Positions 12,621 through 60,718 of a stretch of DNA of 64,000 bases are shown piece by piece. This DNA comes from Nannocystales bacterium (GTDB lineage: Bacteria; Myxococcota_A; Polyangia; Nannocystales; Nannocystaceae), in the NCBI GenBank assembly GCA_050633305.1, contig JBOEGF010000038.1:97972-161971 (forward strand), given 5' to 3'. The number at the start of each line of letters is the position of its first letter. Position 1 is the first letter of the stretch. The position numbers were made by a program, and so were the translations under genes. The notes under the pieces were generated by a model. It was not told where the DNA came from. It saw nothing but the letters and a program-made list of their open reading frames with translations, and searched no databases.

Positions 12621-12743
12621 CCAGCGTTTGACGCAGCGCAGTGACGAACGATCACCTTAAAGTGCCGAAATCCTCGCCCCGACACACAGCCGCAACCCAA
12701 GCGCTCGCCCTCTTCATCCCCCACGGCACCCGGACGCGGGTCG

Positions 12744-14192
12744 CTATCCATCGGAGTAGAGTACGAGCACGCGGCCTTCGGCCCCACCACGGGCCCCGAC
12801 TACGATATCTTCGATACCATCGTCGTTGAGATCGGCGACGGCGATATCACGACCATACTCCCCCTCGATCGAAAAGGACTGCTCTTCCTCGAAGGCGTCG
12901 TCTCCGAGGCTCATCAGGACGCCTACCGACCCGAAATAGGGAAGCGCGGAGTTCCCACCGGTCACGACAATGTCGTCGCAACGGTCGTCATCGAGGTCGA
13001 CGCCCGCCATCGACACGACCGGGCTGAGAACGGTGAGTTGCTGTAGGGGCGCGAACCCGCGTTGACCGTCACCGGCGTAGACTTCGACGACGGCATCCGT
13101 GCTGATGGCAACGTCGAGCAACAAGTCTCCGTTGAAGTCGCCTATTGCGGTGGCTCGGCTGGGAAGCGCGCCCAACGCGGTGGGCCCATCGAGGCCGCCA
13201 TTGCCCGTTCCCCACCAAACGAAGCCGCCATCGAGCGTTGGCACGAGCACATCGACGAATCCGTCGGTGTCGAGGTCGGCGGTGGATATCTCGAATGCCC
13301 AGGGCGACTCGTACCGAATCGGGGTATCGAATGCCTCGGCGGCGTTCCCGAGATGCACTTCGATGCTGGTGCTTGCGCTCGTGATCGCGTCTAGGCGATT
13401 GTCCCCGTTGAGGTCCGCGAGGGCAATGTCCTGGCCGGAGGGGGTCATCGTGAAGTCCGACGCAGGGCCAAAGCTCCCGTTTCCTAGACCCCGCCAGCGC
13501 CGCACCACGCTGGCGGTCGTGGCGGAGTTCGGTCGCGTAAACGACACGAGATCAGGCTGCGCGTCCGCGATCGGGCCGATAGCGAGCGAAGGCGAGTACG
13601 AGTCCATGCTGGTGACCGTCCCAAAATCGCCGCCGATCTGTCCCAGAAGCGTTCGAATGACCTGGGAGCTGAGGTCCGACACGACGAGGTCTGGCTGGTC
13701 GTCGCCGTTGAGGTCGCCAAGCGCAATACTGTCGACGGTTCCCCAGGCGCCGACCTGATCGAACCCGTTGTAGGGGACCGCATTCGTCGGGAACCGACCG
13801 GTCCCGCACTCGGGAAGCTGGATCCCGGTCGAGCTCGATGATTCGCCTACGCCTGAAGTCCGCTCGCTGGTCGTCGTGCTTCCGGTGGACGGCTCCGGAC
13901 CCGATGTCGCCGCGTCGGAGGTGGATGAGTTCGGCGCCGTCGTCGTTCCCTCATCCCCCCCGGCCGATGAATCGACTCGCGAGGTCGAAACCTCAGCGTC
14001 GGTCTCGCTGGTCGGTCCCACTTGTATGTTCGAGGTGGGAGAGAAGCAGCCGGGCAGCAGGGATGTGACGAGGAGAGTAGAGGTGACAGCCCGACGAGGT
14101 CGTCGTGTGGACGACTCGTGGAGGCAAGGGGGAAATATGACGTGGGCGCGTCGATCGCGTGGCACGTGGGCGCGTGTTGCATGCGGTTGCAT
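12744..14192 (-). CDS. FG-GAP/VCBS repeat lipoprotein
   Basis: LLPGC lipobox, Ser/Thr linker, repeated (G/A)DLNGD..D(L/I)(V/A) motifs; start uncertain. Confidence 0.85.
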   Translation of the reverse strand: MQPHATRAHVPRDRRAHVIFPPCLHESSTRRPRRAVTSTLLVTSLLPGCFSPTSNIQVGPTSETDAEVSTSRVDSSAGGDEGTTTAPNSSTSDAATSGPEPSTGSTTTSERTSGVGESSSSTGIQLPECGTGRFPTNAVPYNGFDQVGAWGTVDSIALGDLNGDDQPDLVVSDLSSQVIRTLLGQIGGDFGTVTSMDSYSPSLAIGPIADAQPDLVSFTRPNSATTASVVRRWRGLGNGSFGPASDFTMTPSGQDIALADLNGDNRLDAITSASTSIEVHLGNAAEAFDTPIRYESPWAFEISTADLDTDGFVDVLVPTLDGGFVWWGTGNGGLDGPTALGALPSRATAIGDFNGDLLLDVAISTDAVVEVYAGDGQRGFAPLQQLTVLSPVVSMAGVDLDDDRCDDIVVTGGNSALPYFGSVGVLMSLGDDAFEEEQSFSIEGEYGRDIAVADLNDDGIEDIVVGARGGAEGRVLVLYSDG

Positions 14193-46653: not shown

Positions 46654-49600
46654 TCAGTCTGCACCGCTGAGTTCGGCCCAGGTCGCTGCTTTGAGGCGGA
46701 AGCTGATCAGCTCACCGCCGTGGGTTGCGACGATGAGTTCCGGTGCCCCGTCCCCGTCGAGGTCCGCGAGCTGTGGGTGCCCCTCCACCTGTGCGCCTGC
46801 GCTCGAGCGCCACAGACTCTCCCCCGAGACCGCATGCACGATGCTGAGGGCACCACCCTCGGACGAAACGACGACGACGCGTGGTCCGTCTGTGGAGAGC
46901 TGGCCGCCGACCAAGGGGGCGGTGGCACGCGGACCGTCGCTGGAAGCTGCCACCACCCGGGTCCAGGCGGGGCGGCTCCAGTCGCCCTGGAACCGACGAA
47001 TCTTCCCGTGGGCGTCCGCCGCATAGACTTCGAGGTTCCCATCCGAATCGCCGTCGAAGCCGAGCGGGGTCGAAGCCCGGCTTCCCCACCCTGCGTGGCG
47101 CTCGAGTACCTCACCGTCGGTCGCACGGACGAAGATCAGGTGGTCCTCCGCGTCGGCGCCACCCATCGTTGTTAGTGCGATGACACGATCCGAAGCCGGT
47201 CCTCCGACGGCGCCCGCGTAGTTGATCCGTGCCCCGACGTCCGCACGCCAGAGCCGGGTCCAGTTCTGGTTCGGTGCGAACGCCTCGACAATACCCTCGA
47301 GTCCGAAGACCACGATCTCGGTGTCCCCGTCCCCGTCGAGGTCGGCTGGCAGCGCACGCGCCCATGTGAAGTTGGACATCGGGACCTCTCGCTCCGCCCG
47401 GTCGAGGGCAGCGGTCAGGACGACGAGACGCGGTGCTCCTTCGTCGCTGAACGTACCGATGAGCACTTCGTCCTCACCGTCGCCATCCACGTCGGCCACT
47501 GTGGGGGTGGCGTAGACGGCGGTCTTCAGCTCGAAGGAGGCGGTGCGGCTGCCATCGGCCGCCGTGTGGCGATGCACAGCCTGGCCGGCGCTGAAGTACA
47601 GATGCGCGCCATCCGAGCCTCCGAGGCCAGCTTCGCGGTGTAGATCCGGCCTGACGCGGTCCAAACCCCGAAACACCGTCCCGTCGCGGCCGCGCACGCG
47701 GGTCAGAGTTCGTCGGCCCTCGTGTTCCATGGACGCAACGACGTACGGTTCGCCGTCGAGCTCTACGACCGACGGGGCCTCTCGCACACCCGCTTGCGAC
47801 TGGACGGCCCAGCGGCGCGAAGGTCCCTTGACCAGCAGCACCCCGGAGTTGTTCTGCATCAAGAGGTCGGCCGCGCCGTCTCGATCGGCATCTCGGACCG
47901 AACGAACCACGTTGACCGAACGATCGAGCTCGAGAGTCGCGAGCGGCTCGAGGTCGTCATCGAAGAACCGCAGTACGCCATCGTGTTCGCGCGCGACCCA
48001 CTCCCGTATCCCATCCCCGTTGAAGTCTCCGACGCTCAGGCGCTTCGGAGCGATCGCCGACAGCGTTCGGGTGGGTCCGCGTCCGTCGATGGGTTCGAGC
48101 ACGGTGTCTTCTCCGCGACCGACCGCCACGAACGCGCGTTCATCCAGCGCGACCGGGTTGAACGACTGCCCGTCGAAGCGCTGCAGTTCGTGGCCCGTGG
48201 GTCCGAAGAGGACTGCGCCGTCGGGGCTTCGAGCCAAGTAGCCATGGAGGGCAGGGCCGGCCACGATCGGCTCGATCGAAATGAGTGAGGGGTCCGCGAA
48301 CCGCACGATGGACTGACCCGTGGCTCCGCTACGCACGGTCCAAGAGCCAGCGCGATCGGTAGACGACACATCGCTGACGCCGTCACCGTCGACGTCGTCT
48401 ACCACGGATGCGCGACCCGCCGCCTCCACTCCCCACGCCACCGTACCCGAAGGCAACACGCATCGAATCCCCTCCGCATCCGAGACGATGACGCGTGAGC
48501 CGAGGGCCTGCATGGAGGCATCGAGGCCGGCGGGGAGTATCCACTCGGGGGTGCCGTCTTCGGCTCGATTGCCGATCACGGACGCGCCGTCGAGGGCGAC
48601 CACGACCGCTGGGATGTCCTGTTGGTGGATCACGCCGAGTCTGTCGCGCACCGGGGCAACTCCGGCCAGCTCCGCTCCCCAGCGCTCGTTCCCCATCGTT
48701 GACGCCGACAGACTCCACGAGGCGAGCCTTCGCCCCCCTTCCGCCACAGCGAACGAGAACAGCTCGGGCATCCCGTCGGCGTCGGCGTCAGCGACGACGG
48801 TCTCCCATTCCATTCCATGGGCCACGGAGAACTCTCCAAGCCGTTGATCACGCCACGGGTCGAGGACTCGGATCGTTCCCGCCCGGTCGACGAGAACCTC
48901 ATCGCGGAGGTCGCCATCGAGGTCCGGAAGCCAACGCACGTGGCGGACCAGGTCGGGGGCTGGGTGGCTCCACGTCTCGACCGGGGTCAGGCCCACGTGC
49001 GCCTGTTGGGAGTGCCCGCGGGTGACGGACCAGCGAAACCGCTTGGCAAAGTGCCCCGCCAACCGCACGTCGAATACGTGCAGCCCGGTCGGGAGTTGGG
49101 TTTCCCGTACGCGCGAGCCGTGGTCGACGCCATCGATGTAGATCCGTGCCGCGCCCGGGGAGGCCGTGATGTCGACTGTGCCGCGGTGCCTGGGCAGGTC
49201 GAACGTCAACACCGCAGACGACCCGGGGCTCACATCCACCGAACGCGCAGCGGGGTCGTGATTCTCCGCCGAAACCTCCACGACATGCAGGCCAGGCGAG
49301 AGCCGCACCGTACGGCTCTCCGTTTGCCCGTCGACCACGACCTCGATACCCGACAGCGCGGCGCCAGTGTCGCTCGATGCGAGGACCTCGATCGTGCCGG
49401 GTTCGAAGCGGTTGTAGACAGCCATGCCCACGCCGAGCAGCGCCAGGGGGCCGAGTACCCAGCGGGACGACGCCCGTCGTCGCTCGCCCGGTGAGGTCCG
49501 CAACCGAGACAACAATGCCTCCATCGACTCGAAGCGGTCACTCTGGGATGCATTCAAGCCACGTTCGACGACGCTACGAACCCATCGGGGGGCACCACAT

Positions 49601-50526
49601 GCGGCGGGCCACGGACGACGGTCGCCGCTGTGTTTCTTGGCGAGGAGTCCCGCGAGCGAAGTCGACTCGAATGCCTGCTGACCGGTCAGCGCCAGGTAGA
49701 GCGAGGCGCAGAACGCAAACTGGTCGGCGCTGGGGCCCGCCTGCCTGCCCTGGTGCTGTTCGGGCGCCATGAATGGCGGGGTGCCCAACGTGGTGCCTGT
49801 CCGCGTCAGGGTCCGACCGGTATCGCGGAAAGAGTCGACGACGGACGGGTCCGTATCGGTTTGTCTTGCGACCCCTTCGGCTGCATCCACGACGGTCGCC
49901 AGACCGAAGTCCGCGACCTTGACGGCGCCATCGTGGCCGATGAGCACGTTGCTCGGCTTGAAGTCGCGGTGAACGATGCCCGCCGCGTGCGCAGCCGCCA
50001 GCCCCCGTCCGGCCTGGACGAAGACTCGAACGACTTCTTTCCACGGGCGCGCCTGAGCCTCGAGCCACTCGGCGAGGTTGCAGCCGTCGACCAGTTCCAT
50101 GACGATGTACAGGACTTCGTCGGGCCCATCCTCGCGCGCGAGCTCGGCGGGGGCCACTGCGGTGCCGGCATCGAACACGGCGGCGACCTCCGCCGCTTGC
50201 ACCGAACTCAGCGCTCTCGCCTCGCGGAAGAACCGCATGCGGACCGTCTGCGAGAGTTCGATACCGGGGCGAAGGACCTTCAGCGCGACTCGGCGGTCGA
50301 GCTGTGGGTCGTAGCCGAGATAGACGACGCCGAATGCCCCTTCGCCAAGTCGCCGCTGGAGCTCGTACCGTCCGAGCACCGAGCGCGCCACCGGCGTGCC
50401 GAAGAGCGCCGCGCTGACGTGCGCGAGCATCGTCCGCGCCTCGACACGATCATCGACCACGCCCCGCCCGAGCCGGGCGGTGCCCGGGCTGCCGCGAGTT
50501 GTGGCTTCGAGGTCGCGCTCGGACAC
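46654..50526 (-). CDS. Membrane Ser/Thr kinase with PEGA and FG-GAP/PQQ-type propeller domains
   Basis: LGEGAFGVVY, HRDFKPSN, DFG, GTPPFMAPE; TM; PEGA-like repeats; many DxDGDG motifs. Confidence 0.95.
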   Translation of the reverse strand: MSERDLEATTRGSPGTARLGRGVVDDRVEARTMLAHVSAALFGTPVARSVLGRYELQRRLGEGAFGVVYLGYDPQLDRRVALKVLRPGIELSQTVRMRFFREARALSSVQAAEVAAVFDAGTAVAPAELAREDGPDEVLYIVMELVDGCNLAEWLEAQARPWKEVVRVFVQAGRGLAAAHAAGIVHRDFKPSNVLIGHDGAVKVADFGLATVVDAAEGVARQTDTDPSVVDSFRDTGRTLTRTGTTLGTPPFMAPEQHQGRQAGPSADQFAFCASLYLALTGQQAFESTSLAGLLAKKHSGDRRPWPAACGAPRWVRSVVERGLNASQSDRFESMEALLSRLRTSPGERRRASSRWVLGPLALLGVGMAVYNRFEPGTIEVLASSDTGAALSGIEVVVDGQTESRTVRLSPGLHVVEVSAENHDPAARSVDVSPGSSAVLTFDLPRHRGTVDITASPGAARIYIDGVDHGSRVRETQLPTGLHVFDVRLAGHFAKRFRWSVTRGHSQQAHVGLTPVETWSHPAPDLVRHVRWLPDLDGDLRDEVLVDRAGTIRVLDPWRDQRLGEFSVAHGMEWETVVADADADGMPELFSFAVAEGGRRLASWSLSASTMGNERWGAELAGVAPVRDRLGVIHQQDIPAVVVALDGASVIGNRAEDGTPEWILPAGLDASMQALGSRVIVSDAEGIRCVLPSGTVAWGVEAAGRASVVDDVDGDGVSDVSSTDRAGSWTVRSGATGQSIVRFADPSLISIEPIVAGPALHGYLARSPDGAVLFGPTGHELQRFDGQSFNPVALDERAFVAVGRGEDTVLEPIDGRGPTRTLSAIAPKRLSVGDFNGDGIREWVAREHDGVLRFFDDDLEPLATLELDRSVNVVRSVRDADRDGAADLLMQNNSGVLLVKGPSRRWAVQSQAGVREAPSVVELDGEPYVVASMEHEGRRTLTRVRGRDGTVFRGLDRVRPDLHREAGLGGSDGAHLYFSAGQAVHRHTAADGSRTASFELKTAVYATPTVADVDGDGEDEVLIGTFSDEGAPRLVVLTAALDRAEREVPMSNFTWARALPADLDGDGDTEIVVFGLEGIVEAFAPNQNWTRLWRADVGARINYAGAVGGPASDRVIALTTMGGADAEDHLIFVRATDGEVLERHAGWGSRASTPLGFDGDSDGNLEVYAADAHGKIRRFQGDWSRPAWTRVVAASSDGPRATAPLVGGQLSTDGPRVVVVSSEGGALSIVHAVSGESLWRSSAGAQVEGHPQLADLDGDGAPELIVATHGGELISFRLKAATWAELSGAD

Positions 50527-50584: not shown

Positions 50585-51190
50585 ATGGATGCTCGCGACG
50601 ACGGGACGCTCCTGAGCGCATGGGCCGAGGGCGATCGAGCCGCCGGAGCCAAGCTCCTCGAGCGGCACCACGAGATTCTATATCGATTCTTTCGCAACAA
50701 GGTGTCGTCGGGTGTGGAGGACCTCATGCAACAGACGATGCTGGCCTGCACCAAGGCGGTTGGCCGGTTCCGGGGGGAGTCGGGGTTTCGCGCGTTCCTG
50801 CTTGGGATTGCGCGACGAGAGTTCCTGCATTATCTCCGAACTCGCTCACGAAAACAGGCACCGCTGCAGCCTTTGGTCGCCTCCGTCGCGGCGTTGATGG
50901 AGTCGCCGAGTCAGGTGGCGGCCCTGCGCAGCGAGCAGGAGATGGTCGCGGCGGGGATGCGCCACCTCCCCGTGGATCTGCAGGTCACCCTCGAGCTGTT
51001 CTATTGGGAAGACTTCTCCGTCGCCGAGGTGGCGGAGGCCACAGAGGTGGCCGCGGGGACGGTGAAGAGTCGGCTTCACCGGGGGCGTGCCCAACTGCGC
51101 ACGTGGATCGAGAAACAAGAGGCCGTCGCCCCGGGCTTGCGCTCATCCACCCTGGCCCGAATATCATCGGAGATGGCCGCAGAACCCTGA
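50585..51190 (+). CDS. ECF sigma factor, divergent from kinase
   Basis: LLSAWAEGD, VEDLMQQT, FRAFLLGIAR, GTVKSRLHRGR. Confidence 0.93.
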   Translation: MDARDDGTLLSAWAEGDRAAGAKLLERHHEILYRFFRNKVSSGVEDLMQQTMLACTKAVGRFRGESGFRAFLLGIARREFLHYLRTRSRKQAPLQPLVASVAALMESPSQVAALRSEQEMVAAGMRHLPVDLQVTLELFYWEDFSVAEVAEATEVAAGTVKSRLHRGRAQLRTWIEKQEAVAPGLRSSTLARISSEMAAEP

Positions 51191-51923: not shown

Positions 51924-53132
51924 ATGACTCAACGAATCTTCGCTGTTCTCTTCGCTCTCGGTACATTGACGGGCTGCGAGGCGACAGACTCCGGCCGGGC
52001 TTCCATGGGCGAACTTGTCGATGATGAACTCGATGCTCCCGAGCCCACGACAGAAGCGATCGTCAACGCACAGGTCCGGCCGGTGTTGTTCGTCCCCCAG
52101 GGGGCCTCGATTTCGGGCGCGGAGCAGGCCGTCCTCGACGCGGCAATGAACGACGTCCGAGGGTGGTACACACGCGAGCTGGGCCGCGCGGGCCGAGATA
52201 TCCGTTGGGCCGACGATTACATCGTCGTCAAGGGCGAGCACACCGCGGCGTACTACCTCGCGCCAGATAAGATGGGCGATGCTGTCGTCGAAGTCGAGAC
52301 CGCGATTGGAGACACTGTCTGGGAGAGTGGCCACATCGAGTTCATCCTCGGTGTGGACTTTGGAGGTTGGGCTGGCGGCTCGGGCAACGGCGTGGGCGGC
52401 TATGCGTTACTCGGGCTCGATCCCCTGATCAATCCGGGTGCATGTGCAGGCGAGTGGTGGTGCGACACGACCATCTGGCGGGGGGCCGCGGTGCACGAAC
52501 TGGGGCACACGTTTACGCTTGGTCACAGCGCCGACCCGTCGATCATGGGGTTTCACGGGGAGTACGAGAGCCGCTTCTTCTTCGAGACGGCCACGTTCCC
52601 CGAGCTCTCCACCGTGGCCAGCATGCCGTACGTGCGTGAAGTCCAGGGCCGCAACTGGACCTGGGCTGAGTGCACCCGCGACGTCTGCCCGATCTCGATG
52701 GGGCACTCGACGGACGGTGCGTGGTCCGGGCTTGGCACCGTGCCCCAAGGAACACGCATGGGGGTCTTCGTCGAGGACGGAGATGCGCTGGTTGTCAGCT
52801 ACCCGATGGCTGATCGGGATCGTCGCGTTCAACTCGTGAACCGTGACGACTTTCGGGCGGTGGTACTCCCGCACGGTCCCCCTCCTGTCACCGACCTGCG
52901 CTCGGCCAGTCGTTTCTGCGCTCAGGATTCTTGCAATGTCTACGTGAAGCAGAACCTGGCGGACGTGGGGGAGCAGATTCTTGGCCAAGTCCCGTGTGGT
53001 ACCGAGATGGGTGTGTTCGTGACTTCGGCCGATTGGGCCGTCGTCAGTTACCCGATGGAAGATCGCGCCCGTGCGGTTCAGGTCGTACCGCAGCAGGGCG
53101 GGGAGTGGGTGGACAGCGCTCCTGCGTGTTGA
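51924..53132 (+). CDS. Metzincin zinc metalloprotease lipoprotein with two C-terminal repeats
   Basis: LTGC lipobox; HELGHTFTLGH plus SIM Met-turn. Confidence 0.88.
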   Translation: MTQRIFAVLFALGTLTGCEATDSGRASMGELVDDELDAPEPTTEAIVNAQVRPVLFVPQGASISGAEQAVLDAAMNDVRGWYTRELGRAGRDIRWADDYIVVKGEHTAAYYLAPDKMGDAVVEVETAIGDTVWESGHIEFILGVDFGGWAGGSGNGVGGYALLGLDPLINPGACAGEWWCDTTIWRGAAVHELGHTFTLGHSADPSIMGFHGEYESRFFFETATFPELSTVASMPYVREVQGRNWTWAECTRDVCPISMGHSTDGAWSGLGTVPQGTRMGVFVEDGDALVVSYPMADRDRRVQLVNRDDFRAVVLPHGPPPVTDLRSASRFCAQDSCNVYVKQNLADVGEQILGQVPCGTEMGVFVTSADWAVVSYPMEDRARAVQVVPQQGGEWVDSAPAC

Positions 53133-53262
53133 GCGGGGCCGGGCGTAGGTCTTCGAGTTCACCAGCCAGCTAGCCCACGGGGCCCGACCGGTGGCCTCGT
53201 CGTGAAGACCGAACCCGCAAGGCGTGGCTCAGCCTGCCGGGGGCTGGTATGAGAGGTCTGCG

Positions 53263-54024
53263 ATGAGCGATGAGCCTACGCTGCGCCAAGCGGTTTTGGA
53301 CGATCCTGACGCGGAGGCCCCGCGAGTCGACTACGCCGCGTGGTGTGACCAGCAGCCGGATGTGGCTACGCAGGCACGCGGTGAGTTTATCCGGCTGCAG
53401 ATCGGACTGGAAAAATACACACCAGGCGGCACGAGCCGTGGTGATCAGCGGCTGCGGATGTTCGAGCTTTCCGACCGCTTCGCCAACACTTGGGCTCAGC
53501 CTCTGGCGCCCTGGGTGTCCAAGCGCGAGTTCCACCGCGGCTTCGTCGAGTACGTGACACTGTCGGCCGCGAATTTCTTGGCGCACGCCAAAGACTTGTT
53601 CGCGCTGGCGCCGATCCGCCATGTCGACCTCACCGACGTCCGCAACGTCAATGAGTCCCTGTTTGCATCGCCGTGGCTTGCGACGCTGCGTTCGCTCGGT
53701 ATGGACGCCGTGGGTTTGCACGACATCCACATGCAGCTCCTGGGCGCGAGCCCCCATGCCGCGCAGCTCGGATGGCTGTCCGCCGAAGACAACCACCTCA
53801 CGACAAACTCATACGCGGCACTGGCAGCTTCGACGACCCTGCCGCGTCTGCGGTTTGCCCGCTTCAGTGGCAACACGGTCGATCCCGTCGAGCAGCTGGG
53901 GATGGATGGGGAAGAGGTCGTCGCGGTGCACATGCCGGACGAGGGCGTCGCCCTGGAGCAGCAGCACGGCCACCTGGAGTGGCTCCACCGCGACGGAAAG
54001 TCGGAGAGTCGTTTCGCGTACTGA
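53263..54024 (+). CDS. TIGR02996-type domain protein with LRR-like repeats
   Basis: AVLDDPDAEAPRVDYAAW...RGEFIRLQ...FHRGFVE. Confidence 0.85.
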   Translation: MSDEPTLRQAVLDDPDAEAPRVDYAAWCDQQPDVATQARGEFIRLQIGLEKYTPGGTSRGDQRLRMFELSDRFANTWAQPLAPWVSKREFHRGFVEYVTLSAANFLAHAKDLFALAPIRHVDLTDVRNVNESLFASPWLATLRSLGMDAVGLHDIHMQLLGASPHAAQLGWLSAEDNHLTTNSYAALAASTTLPRLRFARFSGNTVDPVEQLGMDGEEVVAVHMPDEGVALEQQHGHLEWLHRDGKSESRFAY

Positions 54025-54036
54025 GGGGCGCTACCC

Positions 54037-55998
54037 CTACTCGATCGCTGGGTAGCCGTACACGATGGCGGCCGTGATGGCCTCCCGGTCCAGTAAGGTG
54101 AGTACGGTCGGATGTCGGGCCTGATTGACCGCAGCCTCGAGTTCCGCGTAGTCGCGGTAGCCGTTACTCACGTTGCGCTTCGCCACGATCGCATCGACGA
54201 TCGTGTCCCGGTCGGGGAGCGCAGCGGTGAGTTCCGCCTTGGTCATCGTATTGACGTTGGTATTGGGATGGGCGTCGAAGTAGCCGTTGGCCGTGGCGAT
54301 GTTGACACCACTGAGGATCAAGCCGTCGGGCACCGTTGAGACAGGCAACCCCTCACGGTACGCCCACATCTTGTCCTTGGCGGCCGTGCTGGTGGGCTCC
54401 CACGTGCCGACCGCATAGCCATTGTAGACCTGGGCGGCGGCGCCCAACAGACGGATTCGGCCATCGCCGCTTTGCAGCCCGAGCATGCGTCCGTCAGCGG
54501 CGGCATCGACGGTTGTCAGCCCCTCGATGGTCGTGTACTTGCGCGGCTGGCCCAACATGTTGGGACTCTGGCCGTTGGGGATGAAGAGGCGGTCGTACTC
54601 CTCGGCCGGCCACTCTGGGTTGTGTGCCGCCTCCAGGTAGGCGGCGGTGCACTCCCACGTCGTACCGGTGAGGGTGTTGTCGACCCGGTTGTGATCGACC
54701 AGCAGTGGTGGCGGACCGCCGTTCTTGCTCGCCTTGAGCTTGACGACGGCGTGCGTGTCGGTCGTAGTCACACGGTCCAGCGAAGCCAACTTGCCGTAGC
54801 GCAGCTTGATGTGCGTGGGGTACAGCGGAATCTTGTCTCGCTCGACATCCCTGGCCGCTTCGTACGCTTCCTTTTTTGCCTTTTCGGTGTCGTAGGGCTC
54901 GCCGAGGGCGGCCAGGCGATCGCCCTCCTCGGCAGCGGCAAACAGAGCGGGGTTGAGCTCACCGACTGCCATGGCCTCGCGCCTCTCGGCGTGCTCGAGG
55001 AAGGTCTGGTTTCGGGGGTTGTCGAACGTATTGACCAACGTGGTACGCCCGAACCAGTCCAGCCAGCAGCCTTTCTTTTGCGACTTCTCCGCGCAATTGA
55101 GCCCCACGCCACCGCCCGCGGTCACGCAGATGCGCTCATTGTTGGAGAGTGCAACCTCGTCGACGATCGCATCAACCCCGTTGAGGACGCGGCGGTTCTT
55201 CAGCGCGTCGTCCCAGTTCTCCGGGGCGAGCCAGGGGGCGGTCTTACCCTGGTCCCGAGCATCGCCTCCGCCGAAAATATTCGGCCGACCTGGACCCGAA
55301 CAAAAATCGATATGCGACGCGTAGTACGGCAGGATCGTCGGTTCGTCGTCGACGAGCACGAGCACGCGGTACTCCGCCGCGTCAGGCCAGTCGTTCTCCC
55401 GGTTCGCCGCCTCGATCGCAGTCCCGAGGGCGGCGTAGATCTCGGGTCCGCCTGCCTCCGGGGTGAAGTCCTCTTCGACAGGCTTGGTGTCATCGGCGCC
55501 CTTCTTCTGGATCCACACGACCCAACCCGGCCGCTCGACCACGCCGTTGTCTGTGACGAGCTTGGCGAGCTGTACGTCGATGGCGGCGCCGAACTCTCGC
55601 GAGTCCAATCCGCCGTCGACCTCGGTACCGGTGGCGTTGGGTTGGGCGGCAAACCCGGGGAGGGTGAGCAGGTACCCAGGCTGCCCCATCCCGTGCTTCA
55701 GATAGGTCGGCCATGGATTCTTGAAACCGACCTGGAGAACCCTCCGCCCGTCGAGCCGCTCGAGGCCCTTGGCACAGCCAAACAGCGTCGTGCAATTTGT
55801 GACACCTGCGGGGCCGCGACCGATGATGACGTAGAACACCTCCGGGGGTGGTACGTCGACGCTGTTGACCGCGACCTCGGATGACGAGGTGCTCAGTGAG
55901 ACGGTGACTTGCCTGAGCAACGGCTCACGCTCAACAGAGTCGGCCAGCTCGCGGCTGCTCGCCGTCTGCTGTTTCTTACTGAAGCAACAACATCCCAT
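54037..55998 (-). CDS. Flavoprotein-like hypothetical protein with N-terminal MGCCCFSKK and C-terminal HhH
   Basis: YVIIGRGPAG and VTAGGGVG Rossmann-like motifs; NVNTMTKAEL...DAIVAKR HhH-like tail. Confidence 0.75.
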   Translation of the reverse strand: MGCCCFSKKQQTASSRELADSVEREPLLRQVTVSLSTSSSEVAVNSVDVPPPEVFYVIIGRGPAGVTNCTTLFGCAKGLERLDGRRVLQVGFKNPWPTYLKHGMGQPGYLLTLPGFAAQPNATGTEVDGGLDSREFGAAIDVQLAKLVTDNGVVERPGWVVWIQKKGADDTKPVEEDFTPEAGGPEIYAALGTAIEAANRENDWPDAAEYRVLVLVDDEPTILPYYASHIDFCSGPGRPNIFGGGDARDQGKTAPWLAPENWDDALKNRRVLNGVDAIVDEVALSNNERICVTAGGGVGLNCAEKSQKKGCWLDWFGRTTLVNTFDNPRNQTFLEHAERREAMAVGELNPALFAAAEEGDRLAALGEPYDTEKAKKEAYEAARDVERDKIPLYPTHIKLRYGKLASLDRVTTTDTHAVVKLKASKNGGPPPLLVDHNRVDNTLTGTTWECTAAYLEAAHNPEWPAEEYDRLFIPNGQSPNMLGQPRKYTTIEGLTTVDAAADGRMLGLQSGDGRIRLLGAAAQVYNGYAVGTWEPTSTAAKDKMWAYREGLPVSTVPDGLILSGVNIATANGYFDAHPNTNVNTMTKAELTAALPDRDTIVDAIVAKRNVSNGYRDYAELEAAVNQARHPTVLTLLDREAITAAIVYGYPAIE

Positions 55999-56004
55999 CC
56001 TACG

Positions 56005-56802
56005 TCATGTCCTGCGGCTGTGTGCCGCCGTAATCCTGTCGAGACTGAGGTGGCGTTCCAGCTCGCGCAACGCACAGCTGTGAAAGCGCTCTGCGGGGAC
56101 ATCGGTGTCGCGAGATTCCTTCAATGCGGGCTGAGTCCAAGGGTGGAACGGGTCGTCCGCGAACCCCGTACCCAGGAGGATCATCAGCGCCGTCACGACC
56201 AGTGTCCCCTCTGGACCTGCGACTCCGAAATGCTCCGCCGCCGTCCGTGCCCGTTGGTGGAGTTCCGTGACGCGCTCGGCCCCAAGCTCCGCGTATCTCG
56301 GTGGCAAGAGGTCACGGACGAAGTCGTGCAGCCCCTGGTCACCGCGGCCAACGTAGTCGGTCGACAGGGTCGCGAACGACTTGGAGCGCGCCCAGAGCAT
56401 GGCCCGACGGTAGTGTTCGCCGTCGTCCCCCACGCTCTTGGCCAGCTCGTCTGCGGCACGCGCTTGCAGCCGCGACATCGCCTGCTTCTGGGGAAGGGGG
56501 CGGTTCTTTTTCAGTGTCTCGCTCGCCCAGGGAAGCAGCGGGTCCTCGTCGAAGCGGTGCCCCAGAAACACCATCAGCGTCGTGTATACGGCGACTGCGG
56601 CGAACTCCGTGACGCCGTGGTGCGCGGCGCGGGCGATCGCTGTCTCGACGAACCGCCGGGTCTGCGGATCCGTCAACAGAACGCAGTGCTGGGGGAACTC
56701 CACCCAAAGGTGATGAAGCAAGTCCTCCCGGAGTCGGACGGCTTGGCCTTGCCGGCGTACCGTCAGTCGACGCATGGCCGGGGTCATCTCGCCGGTGGCC
56801 AT
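56005..56802 (-). CDS. Hypothetical protein with duplicated helical domain (possible effector adaptor)
   Basis: Two copies of A..(H/F)G......LM..LG..F..DP..PW; TAATG coupling to the upstream gene. Confidence 0.7.
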   Translation of the reverse strand: MATGEMTPAMRRLTVRRQGQAVRLREDLLHHLWVEFPQHCVLLTDPQTRRFVETAIARAAHHGVTEFAAVAVYTTLMVFLGHRFDEDPLLPWASETLKKNRPLPQKQAMSRLQARAADELAKSVGDDGEHYRRAMLWARSKSFATLSTDYVGRGDQGLHDFVRDLLPPRYAELGAERVTELHQRARTAAEHFGVAGPEGTLVVTALMILLGTGFADDPFHPWTQPALKESRDTDVPAERFHSCALRELERHLSLDRITAAHSRRT

Positions 56803-57485
56803 TACGCGGAGGCCCCGGTATCGCTGTCGTCTTGGCCCAGCGTATCGTCGGCGACCGCGTCGTGGAGCTCGTCGAGCCGAGCGCGCGTTGCATCGTCGAG
56901 TTCGCCTGTTGCCTCCAGATGCGCGTCCTGAGCTCGCTGGAAGGCCACAAGGGCGTCTTCGGTTCTCGGCCCCATCTTTCCGTCCGCGCGCCCGCACGGG
57001 TACCCAAGGTTGGCCAGTCGTTGCTGCACCCCGGAGAGTTCGCAGAGCGGGTCGAGGTGGCCGAATGCGAGCTGAACCACGAACCTGTCCTCGCCGATTG
57101 TCAGCACACCCGACGTGGCCCCGGCGGGTAAGGCTGTCTTGACCACGCCGTCCGCGTCGGACTTTCCTTCGATCGTCGTGCCGCCAACTTCAAGCGTGTA
57201 ATCCTGGTCCGCCCGGGGTTCGCCGAAGTCGTACAGCTGGATCCTGAAGTGGGCCGGGATCCCCTTGCGACGGAACGTGTGCAGTTTGCCCGTGGGCGCC
57301 GTCACCTCCTTGACCCGCAACTCGGGGATGAACAGCTCGTCGCCCGGCAGGAGCGTGTTCATGTTCGGCCGCGCCGCCTTCAGGGCAGCGTTCTCAGGTG
57401 CCGCCCAGATCGTGTCGGCGTACAGGCCGTAGTCCTCCGACAGGCTGATGACGCTTTCCCCAGCTTTGACGATGTGGGTCGGCAC
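56802..57485 (-). CDS. LysM-like and peptidoglycan-binding domain protein
   Basis: HIVKAGES...LLPGDELFIP; VQQRLANLGY...DGKMGPRTEDALVAFQ PG-binding motif. Confidence 0.88.
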   Translation of the reverse strand: MPTHIVKAGESVISLSEDYGLYADTIWAAPENAALKAARPNMNTLLPGDELFIPELRVKEVTAPTGKLHTFRRKGIPAHFRIQLYDFGEPRADQDYTLEVGGTTIEGKSDADGVVKTALPAGATSGVLTIGEDRFVVQLAFGHLDPLCELSGVQQRLANLGYPCGRADGKMGPRTEDALVAFQRAQDAHLEATGELDDATRARLDELHDAVADDTLGQDDSDTGASA

Positions 57486-57741
57486 GACCACAAGAGTATA
57501 GGTGGGCTCGTTCTCCGAAAGCGACCGCCTTTCCCAGAGGCCCGTTGTGTCGGCACAGCCCTCGTCGGACACCATCCGCACGCCGGTCCACCAACCCTTG
57601 GGAGTGCCTGGGTTGTCGGTCGGCTGTTCGGCCGCCCGTGAGGTCGCCGTGTGATTGTGTTTAGGCGAAATGAGCCCGGGGAAATAGGTCATTTGACCGA
57701 CTCGTCGTGACGGGCCAGCCCGATAGGTTCTCGAGCAACCG

Positions 57742-58635
57742 ATGACGACGCCACGCCGACGCTCTTGGATCACCCGCCTGTTGAACACCGTGCTCGGGCT
57801 CGGGCTCGGATCTGGTTGTGCCACCACCGCGAGCCACATTCCTTCCGGCGCCCCCGCTGCGACTCCGACCAAGACCATCGTGCTGGTGCACGGGATGTTT
57901 GTGACGCCAACGTGCTGGAGTCGGTGGGAGCCATACCTGGAGTCCAAGGGCTACCGGGTGTTGGCGCCGGCGTGGCCACAGCATGACCGTCCTGCGGCGG
58001 AGGCCCGCGCTGCTCACCCCGACGCCGCGCTGGCGGCGGTCGACTTGGCCGCGGTGGTCGACCACTACCGCGGTGTCGTGGCGGAGCTGGACAGTCCTCC
58101 GATTCTGATCGGGCATTCGATGGGCGGCTTGGTCGTGCAGGTCCTGCTCTCGGAGGGTGTTGGATCGGCTGGAGTCGCGATTGACTCCGCGCCCCCCAAA
58201 GGGGTCACGTCGCTGAGCCCAGCGTTCCTCAAGAGCAACGCACGGATTCTCCGCGGGTCGCTGGACGAGCCGTTGGACATGTCACCGGAGCGTTTCGCCT
58301 ACATGTTCGTGAACACCCAGCCTCCGGAGCGACAGAAGGCCCTGTGGGAAACCCACGCGCAGCCGGAGTCGCGTCGGGTTGGGCGCGACGCGAGCCAGGA
58401 CCCGGGGCGCGTTGACTTCGGGCGCAGTCGGCCCCCGCTGCTGCTGATCGCTGGGGAATACGACCACGCGGTCCCGCCGGTGATCGGTCGCAAGACGTTC
58501 CGCCGCTACCGAAAAGCGACTGCGATCACCGAGTACCGCGAGGTGGCCGGCGTCGACCATTGGCTGATCGGAGGTGAGCAATGGCAAGAGGTTGCGGACC
58601 TGACGCTCGAGTGGCTCGCGGAACAGGGAACCTAG
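57742..58635 (+). CDS. Alpha/beta hydrolase
   Basis: VLVHGMF, GHSMGG, AGEYDH and DHW motifs. Confidence 0.9.
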   Translation: MTTPRRRSWITRLLNTVLGLGLGSGCATTASHIPSGAPAATPTKTIVLVHGMFVTPTCWSRWEPYLESKGYRVLAPAWPQHDRPAAEARAAHPDAALAAVDLAAVVDHYRGVVAELDSPPILIGHSMGGLVVQVLLSEGVGSAGVAIDSAPPKGVTSLSPAFLKSNARILRGSLDEPLDMSPERFAYMFVNTQPPERQKALWETHAQPESRRVGRDASQDPGRVDFGRSRPPLLLIAGEYDHAVPPVIGRKTFRRYRKATAITEYREVAGVDHWLIGGEQWQEVADLTLEWLAEQGT

Positions 58636-58693: not shown

Positions 58694-59308
58694 TCAATCC
58701 GGTTGTCGGGGCAGGCCAGCGAGCGAACTCCAGTAGCTGCGCAGGCTGGTCTCGGTCGACTCAACATCGACGGGGTTCGCGATGAGTTTTTCTATGACCC
58801 GTTGGAGCCGCTGCCGTACACGATGGAGTCGCCCGCTGATCACATTGAGGGGGACGTCGAAGACTTCGGCGAGTTCTCGACGCTTCATGGCTTCGTAGCC
58901 ACTGAGTTGCAGAAGGATCTGGTCGTCGACAGAGAGGCTTCGCAATGCCGCGATCACAATGTCGCGGTTCGACTTGCTCACGAGGATGGCGGAGGCGGGT
59001 GGCGCCTCCCCTGCGAGGCGCGCTTCGAGCTCCTCGCCTAGGGGGGCGGTCCTCCGTTTGCGGCCTCGCTCGAGCAGCTTCCGACGTGCGATGCCGAACG
59101 CGAATGAACGAAAACTGCAGTAGGATCGAATTCGCGCCCTCGCTTCGACGAGGGTGAGCAAGGTGTCCTGAACCATATCGGCGACCTCGCTGGGCGGCAC
59201 TCGGTCGCGGAAGAATGCTGTAAGCGCGCGGCGATGCTTTCGAACGAGCGCCGCACCGGCCTCGGAGTTCCCGTCACGCCACTGCGCGAGCAGTTGTTCA
59301 TCGCCCAC
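58694..59308 (-). CDS. ECF sigma factor, divergent from kinase
   Basis: DEQLLAQWRDG, ADMVQDT, FRSFAFGIAR, ISGRLHRVR. Confidence 0.9.
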   Translation of the reverse strand: MGDEQLLAQWRDGNSEAGAALVRKHRRALTAFFRDRVPPSEVADMVQDTLLTLVEARARIRSYCSFRSFAFGIARRKLLERGRKRRTAPLGEELEARLAGEAPPASAILVSKSNRDIVIAALRSLSVDDQILLQLSGYEAMKRRELAEVFDVPLNVISGRLHRVRQRLQRVIEKLIANPVDVESTETSLRSYWSSLAGLPRQPD

Positions 59309-59338
59309 CTCGCAGAGTATAGAAACGCCTGCAGGAGG

Positions 59339-60718
59339 ATGGAAAGCTCTGGCTCGATTGGAACGCTGACCCGGCGGCAACTTGCTCTTCTTAGCGACCT
59401 GGCCCGTGAGCCGCAATGCGGGGCGGCGGCCGATGAGTTTCGAGAGCTCCCTTTGCTACTCGGCCGCTACGAGGTCCGCGAGCCCATCGGCATGGGCGGT
59501 ATGGGTACTGTCTTCAAAGGCTGGGACCGCCGCCTCGAAGCCCACGTTGCAGTGAAGATCGCCCGCCCTGGCGGCGGGGAACGGAACCGCAGCAGCTTGC
59601 TACGAGAGGCTCGGGCTGCCGCGGCTGTCCACCACGAGTACGTCGTTGGGATTCGGGATGTGGGAGAAGCCGAAGACGGCACTCCATTCGTGGTGATGGA
59701 CTTCCTTGAGGGCGAACCACTCTCGGCTTCCCTGGCCGAGCGGGGGCGGCTCCCGTTGTCATTCGCGCTCCCCCTGCTCGAACAAGTTGCGCATGGCCTT
59801 CAAGCCGCTCACGAGGCCGGGATCGTTCACCGGGACCTCAAGCCCAGCAACATCTTCGTCAACGAGAGAGAAACCGGCATCCGCTGCACTCTCATCGACT
59901 TTGGGCTCGCCCGAGCGTTCGATGTCGATGGGGACTCCCGCTCACTCACCAAGGATGGGCAACTCGTTGGGACACCGCGCTACATGAGCCCAGAGCAGAT
60001 CACGGGCGGTCATCCGGTGGGCCCGGCTTCGGACATCTACGCATGGGGCTGCGTCGCGTACAACGTGCTCCGCGGGGCACCGCCGTTCGGAGGAACGCTC
60101 CATCAACTGTTGCACAAGCATGTGCATGAGGAACCGCCCAGGCTCGAGAAGGTTCCGCCCCCAATTCAGAAACTCGTACGACGCTGCATGGACAAGGACC
60201 CCGCAAGGCGTCCGTCATCGGCTCTCGAACTACGGGCTGTCTTGGCGGCTCCCAGACGTTCCACCGCACCCGCTCGTAGTGATAGGCTGAGCACGCGGGT
60301 CGCGGCGGCCGTTGCCAGTGTCCTCGTCGCAGCGTACATCGGTTGGGCGTTCGGGCGAAACACGGCAAGTCCCCATCTCATATCGCACATCGCGCCCCCT
60401 GCGATGTTGGTGGAGGCCGACGGGTGCCCTCCCTCTGGCGAGAGCGCACCCTCGGTAATTCACGAACCGGGGAGTGAACCTAAAGAGAGTGAGCCTAAAG
60501 AGAGTGAGCCTAAAGAGAGTGAGCCTAAAGAGAGCGAACCCGAGCCTGCAACGAAAGTGAAACCGAAAGTGAAACCGAAAGTGAAACATTCACGACCGCG
60601 GGCTGGTTCAGGGAAGACGACTCCTGACGAACTCAACCGCGAGGGAGCGACGGAGCCCCCTGTGGTGCAAGGTCGATCACGCGCCGAGATTCTCGAGGAG
60701 CTTGATGAGCTGGACTGA
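59339..60718 (+). CDS. Ser/Thr protein kinase with TM and low-complexity tail
   Basis: IGMGGMGTVF, HRDLKPSN, DFG, GTPRYMSPE. Confidence 0.95.
   Translation: MESSGSIGTLTRRQLALLSDLAREPQCGAAADEFRELPLLLGRYEVREPIGMGGMGTVFKGWDRRLEAHVAVKIARPGGGERNRSSLLREARAAAAVHHEYVVGIRDVGEAEDGTPFVVMDFLEGEPLSASLAERGRLPLSFALPLLEQVAHGLQAAHEAGIVHRDLKPSNIFVNERETGIRCTLIDFGLARAFDVDGDSRSLTKDGQLVGTPRYMSPEQITGGHPVGPASDIYAWGCVAYNVLRGAPPFGGTLHQLLHKHVHEEPPRLEKVPPPIQKLVRRCMDKDPARRPSSALELRAVLAAPRRSTAPARSDRLSTRVAAAVASVLVAAYIGWAFGRNTASPHLISHIAPPAMLVEADGCPPSGESAPSVIHEPGSEPKESEPKESEPKESEPKESEPEPATKVKPKVKPKVKHSRPRAGSGKTTPDELNREGATEPPVVQGRSRAEILEELDELD
60473..60587 (+). repeat. Coding tandem repeats: 15-bp unit x4 (SEPKE) and 12-bp unit x3 (KVKP)
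   Basis: AGTGAGCCTAAAGAG and GAAAGTGAAACC units read directly. Confidence 0.9.

Follow-up and report, generated by a model that had tools for sequence, protein, structure and literature searches.

A conserved N-terminal cysteine tag on a candidate type VI secretion effector with a flavoprotein-like core from a Nannocystales bacterium

We analysed a 64,000-nucleotide stretch of DNA from a Nannocystales bacterium (assembly GCA_050633305.1, contig JBOEGF010000038.1, positions 97,972 to 161,971 of the forward strand), the whole of which is called the window below. By RpoB, the organism falls within the Nannocystaceae, with 98% identity to a metagenome-assembled genome of that family, 88% to Paraliomyxa and 84% to Nannocystis. 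On its minus strand, at 54037..55998, lies a gene for a 653-residue protein starting with MGCCCFSKK, a short cysteine tag that is conserved among its homologs. The gene belongs to a cassette of four genes that also encodes a protein resembling part of an adaptor from type VI secretion systems (T6SS), and its product is probably a T6SS cargo effector. What is new here is an uncharacterised T6SS-linked effector family (288 representatives, no Pfam model), marked by an enzyme core that is new, by an unusual and strongly conserved Cys tag and by a cassette of four genes that is itself conserved. The best full explanation that we can offer, a T6SS cargo effector whose tag serves as a lipid anchor in a eukaryotic recipient, is possible rather than probable, and it is weighed below against its alternatives.

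The start codon and the N-terminal cysteine tag

The effector candidate and the elements at its 5' end are as follows.

54037..55998, minus strand: effector candidate of 653 amino acids (aa), with a Cys tag, a disordered leader, a two-Rossmann flavoprotein-like core and a helix-hairpin-helix (HhH) tail, as judged from the open reading frame (ORF), 23 homologs, 288 cluster representatives and an AlphaFold2 (AF2) model
55972..55998, minus strand: conserved N-terminal Cys tag MGCCCFSKK, codons 1-9, from homolog conservation
55849..55971, minus strand: leader, residues 10-50, variable and mostly disordered (pLDDT 39-52 over residues 1-50), with a semi-conserved VSL...N.V..P element at its end (alignment A1)
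56010..56013, minus strand: AGGA, Shine-Dalgarno-like on reading the sequence, 11 nt 5' of the effector ATG

The first codons of the ORF, ATG GGA TGT TGT TGC TTC AGT AAG AAA, read M-G-C-C-C-F-S-K-K, and the TGA of the preceding gene (56005-56007) is separated from this ATG by 6 nt. The public gene call (P0001, 627 aa) begins 26 codons too late, at the TTG of codon 27 (window 55918-55920), and the ESM Atlas record has the same start, so that the MGCCC motif is hidden in databases and from automatic annotation. Another representative, P0049, shows an apparent truncation like that of P0001. We aligned 22 relatives of the effector, 35-48% identical to it (alignment A1). A Cys-rich N-terminus was present in 15 of them (MGCCCFDG, MGCCGLDK, MGCCDFSQ twice, MGLCDFSE, MGCCDFSK, MGCCCGT four times, e.g. 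MGCCCGTD, MGSCCGID, MTCCCGT twice, e.g. MTCCCGTD, MCCCSGTD and MCNYFGTA), and the remaining 7 carried a long E/K-rich extension of 100-170 residues. The MGCCCGT start is found in Sorangium cellulosum So ce56 and in two other Sorangium genomes, while two metagenome loci, L016 and L017, start with MGCCCFGRKK, the same type as in the window. An in-frame stop lies upstream of the MG..C ATG, 6 codons away in the metagenome locus L011 and 11 codons away in L016 and L017, and strong Shine-Dalgarno elements stand 6-7 nt before the ATG in L013 (AGGAGG), L014 (GAGAGG) and L012 (GGAGGG). As judged by this comparison of sequences, the homologs confirm the ATG of MGCCCFSKK as the true start. The N-terminus reported in the first-pass annotation of this DNA is thus borne out; that annotation had allowed for a start further downstream or for an unconserved N-terminus, and neither is what we found.

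The tag is conserved well beyond what surrounds it. Over the 16 Cys-type rows, mean pairwise identity was 0.69 for residues 1-5, against 0.15 for residues 9-30, and it reached 0.64-0.65 in the Rossmann regions (0.64 in the first, residues 51-110). The difference between tag and leader indicates selection on the tag within an otherwise fast-evolving leader. In most members the tag has vicinal cysteines with small residues (G, S, T) next to them, and members with a single Cys also occur (MGLCDF, MGNCLG, MGACNK). Two crude scans of the 11.0-Mb, 65.9% GC genome gave no second ATG-started ORF of the MGC type. We inspected 13 other candidates from these scans, of which 12 were GTG pseudo-starts and the last, an ATG followed by MGTCV..., was not of the MGC type; a larger genome set of MGC-started proteins was dropped as a candidate finding on these grounds.

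A profile was searched against 1.84 billion representatives, which gave 288 members, 110 of them at E <= 1e-30, and N-terminal types were counted over 119 full-length representatives. An MG start was found in 35 of the 119, and 22 of these 35 have Cys at residues 3-6. With a crude genome background of 252 Gly2 ORFs out of 3505, Gly2 is enriched among the N-termini of the family. MG followed by a conserved polybasic stretch was seen in 7/119, an N-terminal transmembrane helix in P0059 and P0092, and long coiled coils at the N-terminus in the Acidobacteriota group of the family. No N-terminal Pfam domain was detected in 21 diverse members. The Cys tag, the polybasic type and the transmembrane helix together suggest that membrane binding is a common theme of these N-termini. 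A more distant subfamily (P0097-P0155, e.g. a protein from an Acetobacteraceae metagenome-assembled genome) has an N-terminal pattern of its own (MP..P.FLL/WLV...P rich), which may be a further N-terminal address on the same core.

A quick maximum-likelihood tree was built from the core only, with 69 rows, leaving out rows shorter than 560 aa, those with non-M starts and those without the Rossmann pattern. Every Cys-type start fell within one 30-row clade (SH-aLRT 94), where Cys at residues 2-6 is kept in 25 of the 30 rows over branch paths of more than one change per site. The coiled-coil group is the sister of this clade, and the other main clade contains the polybasic types. From the tree, the tag appears to go back to the ancestor of a deep clade and to have been retained since. 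The named family members are all called "hypothetical protein" in these searches (Pseudenhygromyxa, Nannocystaceae, Sorangium, Bryobacteraceae, Acetobacteraceae). None of 300 other genomes sampled evenly from the phylum matched at E 1e-20, that is, the family was not found among those searched; its distribution is patchy, as is typical of mobile effector cassettes.

The four-gene cassette, its link to the T6SS and the protein body

The three partners of the effector gene are listed below.

56802..57575, minus strand: LysM-like / PG_binding_1 protein, first gene of the operon (PG_binding_1 E 1.1e-11, LysM E 0.061), with an uncertain start
56005..56802, minus strand: all-helical protein of 265 aa with two internal repeats, like the C-terminal lobe of a Tap (DUF4123) adaptor, from alignment A2, AF2, VIA and the Atlas
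53263..54024, plus strand: TIGR02996-domain protein with a repeat-like C-terminal half (TIGR02996 E 7.7e-7), a candidate immunity protein or otherwise an obligate partner; its ORF opens at 53224 and the likely ATG is at 53263

The operon runs from the LysM/peptidoglycan-binding (LysM/PGB) gene through the helical gene to the effector gene, which is the third and last. The long form of the LysM/PGB ORF covers 56802..57947, with the homologous part beginning at about residue 158. The ATG of the helical protein overlaps the LysM/PGB stop by 1 nt, its own stop lies just before the effector ATG as given above, and the TIGR02996 gene is convergent with the effector gene, 13 nt past the effector stop. 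By tblastn, the same order (LysM/PGB, helical, effector, TIGR02996) was found in the window and in the loci L002, L006-L009 and L011-L015; the cassettes of L016 and L017 are cut short and have the same order. In every locus with enough flank, the LysM/PGB gene was conserved and the TIGR02996 gene was adjacent to the effector gene. The helical gene is present in all loci of the Cys clade and lacking in two coiled-coil loci of Acidobacteriota, the sister group. In a metagenome protein of 770 aa (P0108), a LysM/PG_binding-like module (residues 3-215) is fused to the enzyme core (E 2e-19), a fusion which suggests that the LysM/PGB protein and the enzyme act together physically. A second whole cassette is found in the same genome (L002, contig C5:434696-439525), where the enzyme paralog has 770 aa, starts with MGQANPLNIF and lacks the cysteines. 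The genome contains exactly two TIGR02996 genes, one per cassette copy, and this partner is probably an immunity protein or an inhibitor of the effector.

Several observations concern the surroundings of the cassettes. The flanks of L002 (L019, L020) encode a Peptidase_M2, a Peptidase_M3 and a Rieske/TPP enzyme, and L002 is syntenic with the metagenome locus L015, whose enzyme starts with MGNCLGLL. In L013, the TIGR02996 gene is directly preceded on its own strand by the gene for a 277-aa protein with a PAAR motif (12644-13477), which has as neighbour a 964-aa protein with eCIS_core (PF13699; L013:14009-16903). Given this layout, the TIGR02996 protein might relate to the PAAR protein instead of, or besides, the flavoenzyme. 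The LysM gene was also considered as a marker of an extracellular contractile injection system, an idea that was dropped because no such genes occur at 36-64 kb of the window. A small gene of 160-180 aa without a Pfam family often stands just upstream of LysM/PGB (L005:3805-4350, L008:3624-4103, L017:1487-1966, L019:562-1104). Weak similarity (E 8e-7) connects its copies in L005 and L008. It is not in the window, and it may be a fifth member of the cassette.

The helical protein provides one link to the T6SS. Its AF2 model (alignment A2) had a pLDDT of 88.9, and in a wide VIA search of 48,161 PDB representatives residues 9-119 of the model superposed on residues 199-302 of Tap3 (9R8G chain B) with Z 11.1 and a root-mean-square deviation of 3.0 over 104 residues, the next match having Z 6.3. 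In the Atlas, the helical fold had a TM-score of 0.80 to a cluster in which 75% of the members carry DUF4123, and proteins that look like it occur as fusions with DUF4123. For the helical protein, neither Foldseek against the PDB (at E <= 0.001) nor NCBIfam returned a match. The matched part of Tap3 is the five-helix C-terminal domain of a DUF4123 adaptor, and according to the work describing it, a role in recognising the effector has been proposed for the variable C-lobe of adaptors of this kind (PMC12909789). When the effector (A1) and the helical protein (A2) were modelled as a complex, the run scores were 0.01, 0.42 and 0.31 against a mark of 0.32, in runs without controls, which weighs neither for nor against binding.

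The other link comes from the flanks. We looked for T6SS markers (VgrG, PAAR, DUF4123 or DUF2169) within the fetched flanks of 14 related loci, and found them beside the cassette in 7.

L005: VgrG, then DUF4123
L006, L007 and L009 (Sorangium): DUF2169 followed by a Tox-PAAR-like protein of 795 aa
L011: DUF6484 and DUF2169
L013: PAAR protein
L017: LysM/PGB gene with DUF4123 directly upstream

Since the three loci from Sorangium nearly duplicate one another, the independent support is about 5/12. The flanks of the window and of L002, L004, L008, L012, L014 and L015 contained no marker. The genome itself encodes T6SS genes (9 VgrG, 2-3 TssC, 1 DUF4123, 4 DUF2169), and the largest numbers of T6SS adaptor genes are reported from myxobacteria (PMC7714669). 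Taken together, the upstream gene resembling a Tap lobe, the markers in half of the loci and the T6SS of the genome make it likely that the candidate is a T6SS cargo effector, which would be secreted by this route.

Within the effector, four elements of the body could be delimited.

55801..55830, minus strand: first dinucleotide-binding motif VIIGRGPAGV, residues 57-66 (G60, G62 and P63 invariant in A1); the fold matches the FAD domains of thioredoxin reductase (TrxR), YpdA, flavin monooxygenase (FMO) and SidA
55282..55308, minus strand: DFCSGPGRP motif at the position of the ATG motif, holding Cys233 (A1)
55087..55125, minus strand: second dinucleotide-binding motif VTAGGGVGLNCAE, residues 292-304 (T293-E304 nearly all invariant in A1)
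54079..54264, minus strand: C-terminal HhH tail, ComEA/EEPD1-like, about residues 579-640, from Pfam and PDB profile matches

From N to C, the invariant columns of A1 are G60-x-G62-P63, D231-x-C233-T-G-P-G-R-P239 and T293-A-G-G-G-V-G-L-N-x-A-E304, and this is the usual order of motifs in flavoproteins with two dinucleotide-binding domains. The two Rossmann-like motifs that had been read from the letters thus fall on invariant columns. Cys233 is kept in 100% of the Cys-type and 98% of the other family members; a core Cys co-varying with the N-terminal Cys tail was sought and the idea dropped, since none does. The AF2 model from A1 had a pLDDT of 77.8 and a pTM of 0.81, with residues 1-50 disordered. 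Its best Foldseek matches were the ornithine N-hydroxylases SidA and PvdA (SidA E 3e-13; 11-13% identity). VIA-align put low-Mr thiol-disulfide reductases and enzymes of the FMO type at the top, with Z from 18.4 to 14.3 over residues 52-573 for YpdA, TrxR, FMO, PvdA and SidA. YpdA/Bdr had the best score (Z 18.4 with 307 aligned residues), TrxR reached about Z 17, coenzyme A disulfide reductase (CoADR) and NADH peroxidase Z 15, and PvdA and SidA Z 14-15. By its model, the body is a two-Rossmann flavoprotein fold of the FAD/NAD(P)H type. Except for a hint of HhH, no Pfam or NCBIfam family was found for the effector at E <= 0.1. A search of the ESM Atlas with the effector gave no usable match, and the Atlas's own model had a pLDDT of 0.33. 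PADLOC matched none of the four cassette proteins, and PHROGs gave endolysin-type matches on the PG-binding domain and nothing else.

The C-terminal 70 residues resemble the HhH modules of ComEA and EEPD1 in their sequence, in line with the HhH tail noted in the first-pass annotation. Pfam T2SSK matched residues 581-629 (E 0.012, 16.4 bits against a cut-off of 24.2), HHH_3 matched in 3 homologs (E 1e-4 to 3e-3, 18-23 bits against a cut-off of 27), and the PDB profile matches were to the HhH region of EEPD1 (E 4.4e-4) and to ComEA (E 0.61).

Further genes lie around the cassette in the window. Just upstream of the TIGR02996 gene, at 51924-53132 on the plus strand, is a gene for a 402-aa protein with a weak match to zinc metallopeptidases of the HExxH type (PF12044, E 1e-4) and a duplicated C-terminal domain. 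An extracytoplasmic function (ECF) sigma factor gene is found at 50585-51190, a Ser/Thr kinase of 1290 aa that carries PEGA and FG-GAP repeats is encoded at 46654-50526 (minus strand) and a second kinase at 59234-60718. Both kinases are typical myxobacterial context, unrelated to the effector.

What the tag may do

In the full explanation that we prefer, the effector would be loaded on the VgrG/PAAR spike via the adaptor-like helical protein, and would act in the recipient's cytoplasm. Its chemistry there would be of a redox kind or would consume NAD(P)H, possibly on DNA or close to it, the body being taken as an oxidoreductase of the FAD/NAD(P)H type whose HhH tail binds DNA non-specifically. 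The (M)G-C-C-C tag, which tips a disordered leader of about 50 residues, would be an address tag working after delivery. The recipient's palmitoyl-transferases would S-acylate its cysteines and the effector would thereby become anchored to the membrane, which would require a eukaryotic recipient, i.e., an amoeba, a fungus or another micro-eukaryote. We infer, in this explanation, that the protein is secreted and toxic, that its TIGR02996 partner gives immunity, that the tag is acylated and which kind of recipient is involved. On its own, the claim that the tag is a lipid anchor made through host acylation is open to considerable doubt. The first-pass annotation had likewise proposed an effector aimed at eukaryotic membranes; its effector part gained support from the cassette, the Tap-like neighbour and the T6SS markers, and its eukaryotic and acylation part stays tentative, with Phe6 and the PG-binding and immunity-like partners speaking against it.

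In favour of a lipid anchor are the extreme N-terminal place of the tag, the preference for Gly2 and the fact that one to three cysteines suffice. The alternative N-termini of the family, which likewise suggest membrane binding, speak for it too, and the host acylation of type III secretion effectors is a precedent. In the window protein, the cysteines at 3-5 stand near hydrophobic and basic residues (C3, C4, C5, F6, K8, K9), in agreement with the pattern of S-palmitoylation signals, and Gly at position 2 agrees with the first element of the pattern of N-myristoyltransferase (NMT) substrates. The NMT rule of the PROSITE type is G-{EDRKHPFYW}-x(2)-[STAGCN]-{P} after Met1. The first-pass annotation was correct that the Ser canonical at position 6 is not there: this residue is Phe where the rule has a small one. 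Phe6 followed by Lys-Lys makes the window protein one of the palmitoylation-only type, for which S-palmitoylation alone is plausible. Over the MG-start representatives, 12 of 35 agree with the rule and 23 do not; those that agree include the MGCCCGT type with its three Sorangium genomes, and Gly2 N-myristoylation is plausible only in this subgroup, e.g. in Sorangium. It is conceivable, if doubtful, that T6SS-delivered flavoenzyme toxins borrow the recipient's acyl-transferases in this manner, for S-palmitoylation and, in the MGCCCGT subgroup, also for N-myristoylation at Gly2. In the genome (92% complete), no DHHC gene was found and no match to NMT (PF01233), the control genomes giving none either, so that the NMT search was without a positive control. 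The same MGCCC tag occurs in three loading contexts (DUF2169/PAAR-like, PAAR and DUF4123, the last also seen with the coiled-coil type), and the tag therefore does not track the type of adaptor.

Several findings weigh against a lipid anchor in a eukaryotic recipient. Phe6 takes the window protein out of the NMT rule, as happens in 10 of the 22 MG representatives with Cys. Cys without Gly2 is seen in 7/119 representatives, 5 relatives being counted as retaining the cysteines while lacking Gly2, and many members have an acidic leader behind the tag, unusual beside a membrane anchor. As regards the T6SS link itself, both cassette copies of this genome are "orphan", away from T6SS genes. Among the papers listed for T6SS together with palmitoylation or myristoylation, none, judged by title and abstract, described a host-lipidated T6SS effector, and a literature search on myxobacterial myristoylated effectors, MGCCC and TIGR02996 returned nothing relevant. 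Finally, a bacterial target would suit the partners of the effector no less well than a eukaryotic target. TIGR02996 and effector genes occur strictly 1:1, as would be the case for an immunity protein against an antibacterial toxin, and the PG-binding partner, present in every locus and fused to the core in P0108, points to the bacterial envelope.

These partners are what an antibacterial T6SS effector would have, with a Cys tag working in a bacterial setting, for loading, for translocation or in the periplasm. We consider this explanation unlikely but worth serious attention. In one variant, the tag would belong to a leader recognised for loading by the Tap-lobe-like protein, by PAAR or by VgrG. 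The adaptor-like gene does co-occur with the clade of short leaders; L005 lacks it and its position in L004 is taken by an unrelated gene of 530 aa, which would also fit a loading role for the leader and again tells against a lipid anchor. In the other variant, a tag reactive with membrane or periplasm would help to cross the inner membrane of the prey, e.g. through disulfides or membrane interaction, by analogy with the N-terminal transmembrane domains of other T6SS effectors. Such domains are implicated in translocation across target membranes in one report (PMC7773334), and a transmembrane helix is found at the same place in two members of the family, P0059 and P0092. However, the tag is just 5-8 residues long, at the extreme N-terminus and with Gly2 preferred, and we know of no T6SS loading motif with such a short, Gly2-preferring tag at the extreme N-terminus. 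The occurrence of the same tag in all three loading contexts also argues against a loading role, as does the fact that the Cys-less members of the clade, including the paralog starting with MGQANPLNIF, keep the adaptor-like gene.

The tail G-C-C-C-G could instead be part of the enzyme, a mobile thiol or metal centre on a flexible leader that shuttles electrons or metal to the flavin site with Cys233. Vicinal Cys or Sec tails are known at the terminus of high-Mr thioredoxin reductases, and mercuric reductase has a Cys-Cys tail and a tethered NmerA. The best structural matches of the body are thiol-disulfide reductases (YpdA/Bdr, TrxR, CoADR and NADH peroxidase), Cys233 is almost universal, the vicinal cysteines have small neighbours in most members, and no foreign enzyme is needed. 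Nevertheless, a redox tail appears quite unlikely. Close relatives whose core is no less conserved do without the tag, as seen in the paralog of this genome, in the sister clade with coiled coils and in the polybasic clade. Several members carry one Cys only, covariation with the tail is seen at no core Cys, and the tail is not docked in the AF2 model.

A non-secreted, cytoplasmic, membrane-associated oxidoreductase, bound to the inner membrane by a novel bacterial route that acylates its N-terminal cysteines or attaches them in another way, is very unlikely: both copies in the genome do lie away from T6SS genes and some relatives have a true N-terminal transmembrane helix, but the protein has neither a signal peptide nor a lipobox context, the genome gave no match to DHHC or NMT, VgrG, PAAR or adaptor linkage is seen in 7/14 loci together with the Tap-lobe-like neighbour, and the patchy distribution is that of mobile effector cassettes. 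A Sec/lipobox (Lgt/Lsp) lipoprotein signal was rejected, as cysteines at 3-5 directly after Met-Gly leave no h-region and no signal peptide.

If the tag is a host-acylation signal, the protein would be the first host-lipidated T6SS effector, and a trick of the type III secretion system (T3SS) would extend to the T6SS and to free-living soil predators. The tag would then provide a simple sequence marker for anti-eukaryotic T6SS effectors and evidence that myxobacteria and Acidobacteriota aim their T6SS at amoebae, fungi and other micro-eukaryotes, and the sister N-termini (MG with a polybasic stretch, amphipathic, transmembrane helix) would be other ways of directing this catalytic core to membranes. 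As a redox or loading tag, it would instead be an element of a kind new among T6SS effectors. Whichever applies, the union of a reductase- or monooxygenase-like core with a DNA-binding tail would be a new toxin chemistry for the T6SS.

Comparison with known systems

The cassette can be compared with Tke5-Tap3 of Pseudomonas putida (PDB 9R8G), where an adaptor-like gene is likewise followed by the effector and a small partner, near VgrG/PAAR (for the present cassette, in some of the related loci). The first repeat of the helical neighbour superposes on the five-helix C-terminal lobe of Tap3, as described above; unlike Tap3, this neighbour has no DUF4123 N-terminal domain and its helical lobe is duplicated. 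Unlike Tke5, the effector has no MIX domain and is flavoprotein-like rather than a pore former, and a LysM/PG_binding_1 gene is added to the cassette.

The body resembles low-Mr TrxR, YpdA (bacillithiol disulfide reductase) and the class B flavin monooxygenases SidA and PvdA in its fold over residues 52-573 (Z 14-18), and it shares with the two-dinucleotide-binding flavoproteins the motif order GxGP..A, ATG-like motif, GGGxGxNxAE. It differs from them by its low identity (11-18%), its large insertions, the HhH tail and the N-terminal leader, cofactor binding being predicted from the model. The tail has the C-terminal NxNTxT...R...NGY motif of the ComEA/EEPD1 HhH modules; here the module is joined to an oxidoreductase core, and all its matches lie below the curated cut-offs.

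For the tag, the closest likeness is to the T3SS effectors lipidated by their host. HopF2 and AvrPto1 are N-myristoylated and SseI and SspH2 are N-terminally palmitoylated by the host, and they are described as carrying a short acylation motif at the extreme N-terminus, useless in the producer and modified by the host for membranes (PMC5599653); the pattern of the tag is of this kind. Unlike those effectors, which belong to the T3SS of plant and animal pathogens, the protein stands in a T6SS context in soil and marine myxobacteria and Acidobacteriota, it has Phe6 and PG-binding and immunity-like partners, and its acylation is predicted from the sequence pattern. Eukaryotic acylation motifs include the GAP-43 type (Cys-Cys with hydrophobic and basic residues) and the MGC type of the Src family and G-alpha. 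The cysteines at 3-5 after Met-Gly, followed by a hydrophobic residue and Lys-Lys, are like these motifs, although the gene is bacterial and the likeness is one of pattern alone. Altogether, in its way of working the protein would come closest to T6SS cargo effectors that depend on Tap, and the nearest likeness of its tag is to the host-acylation motifs of T3SS effectors.

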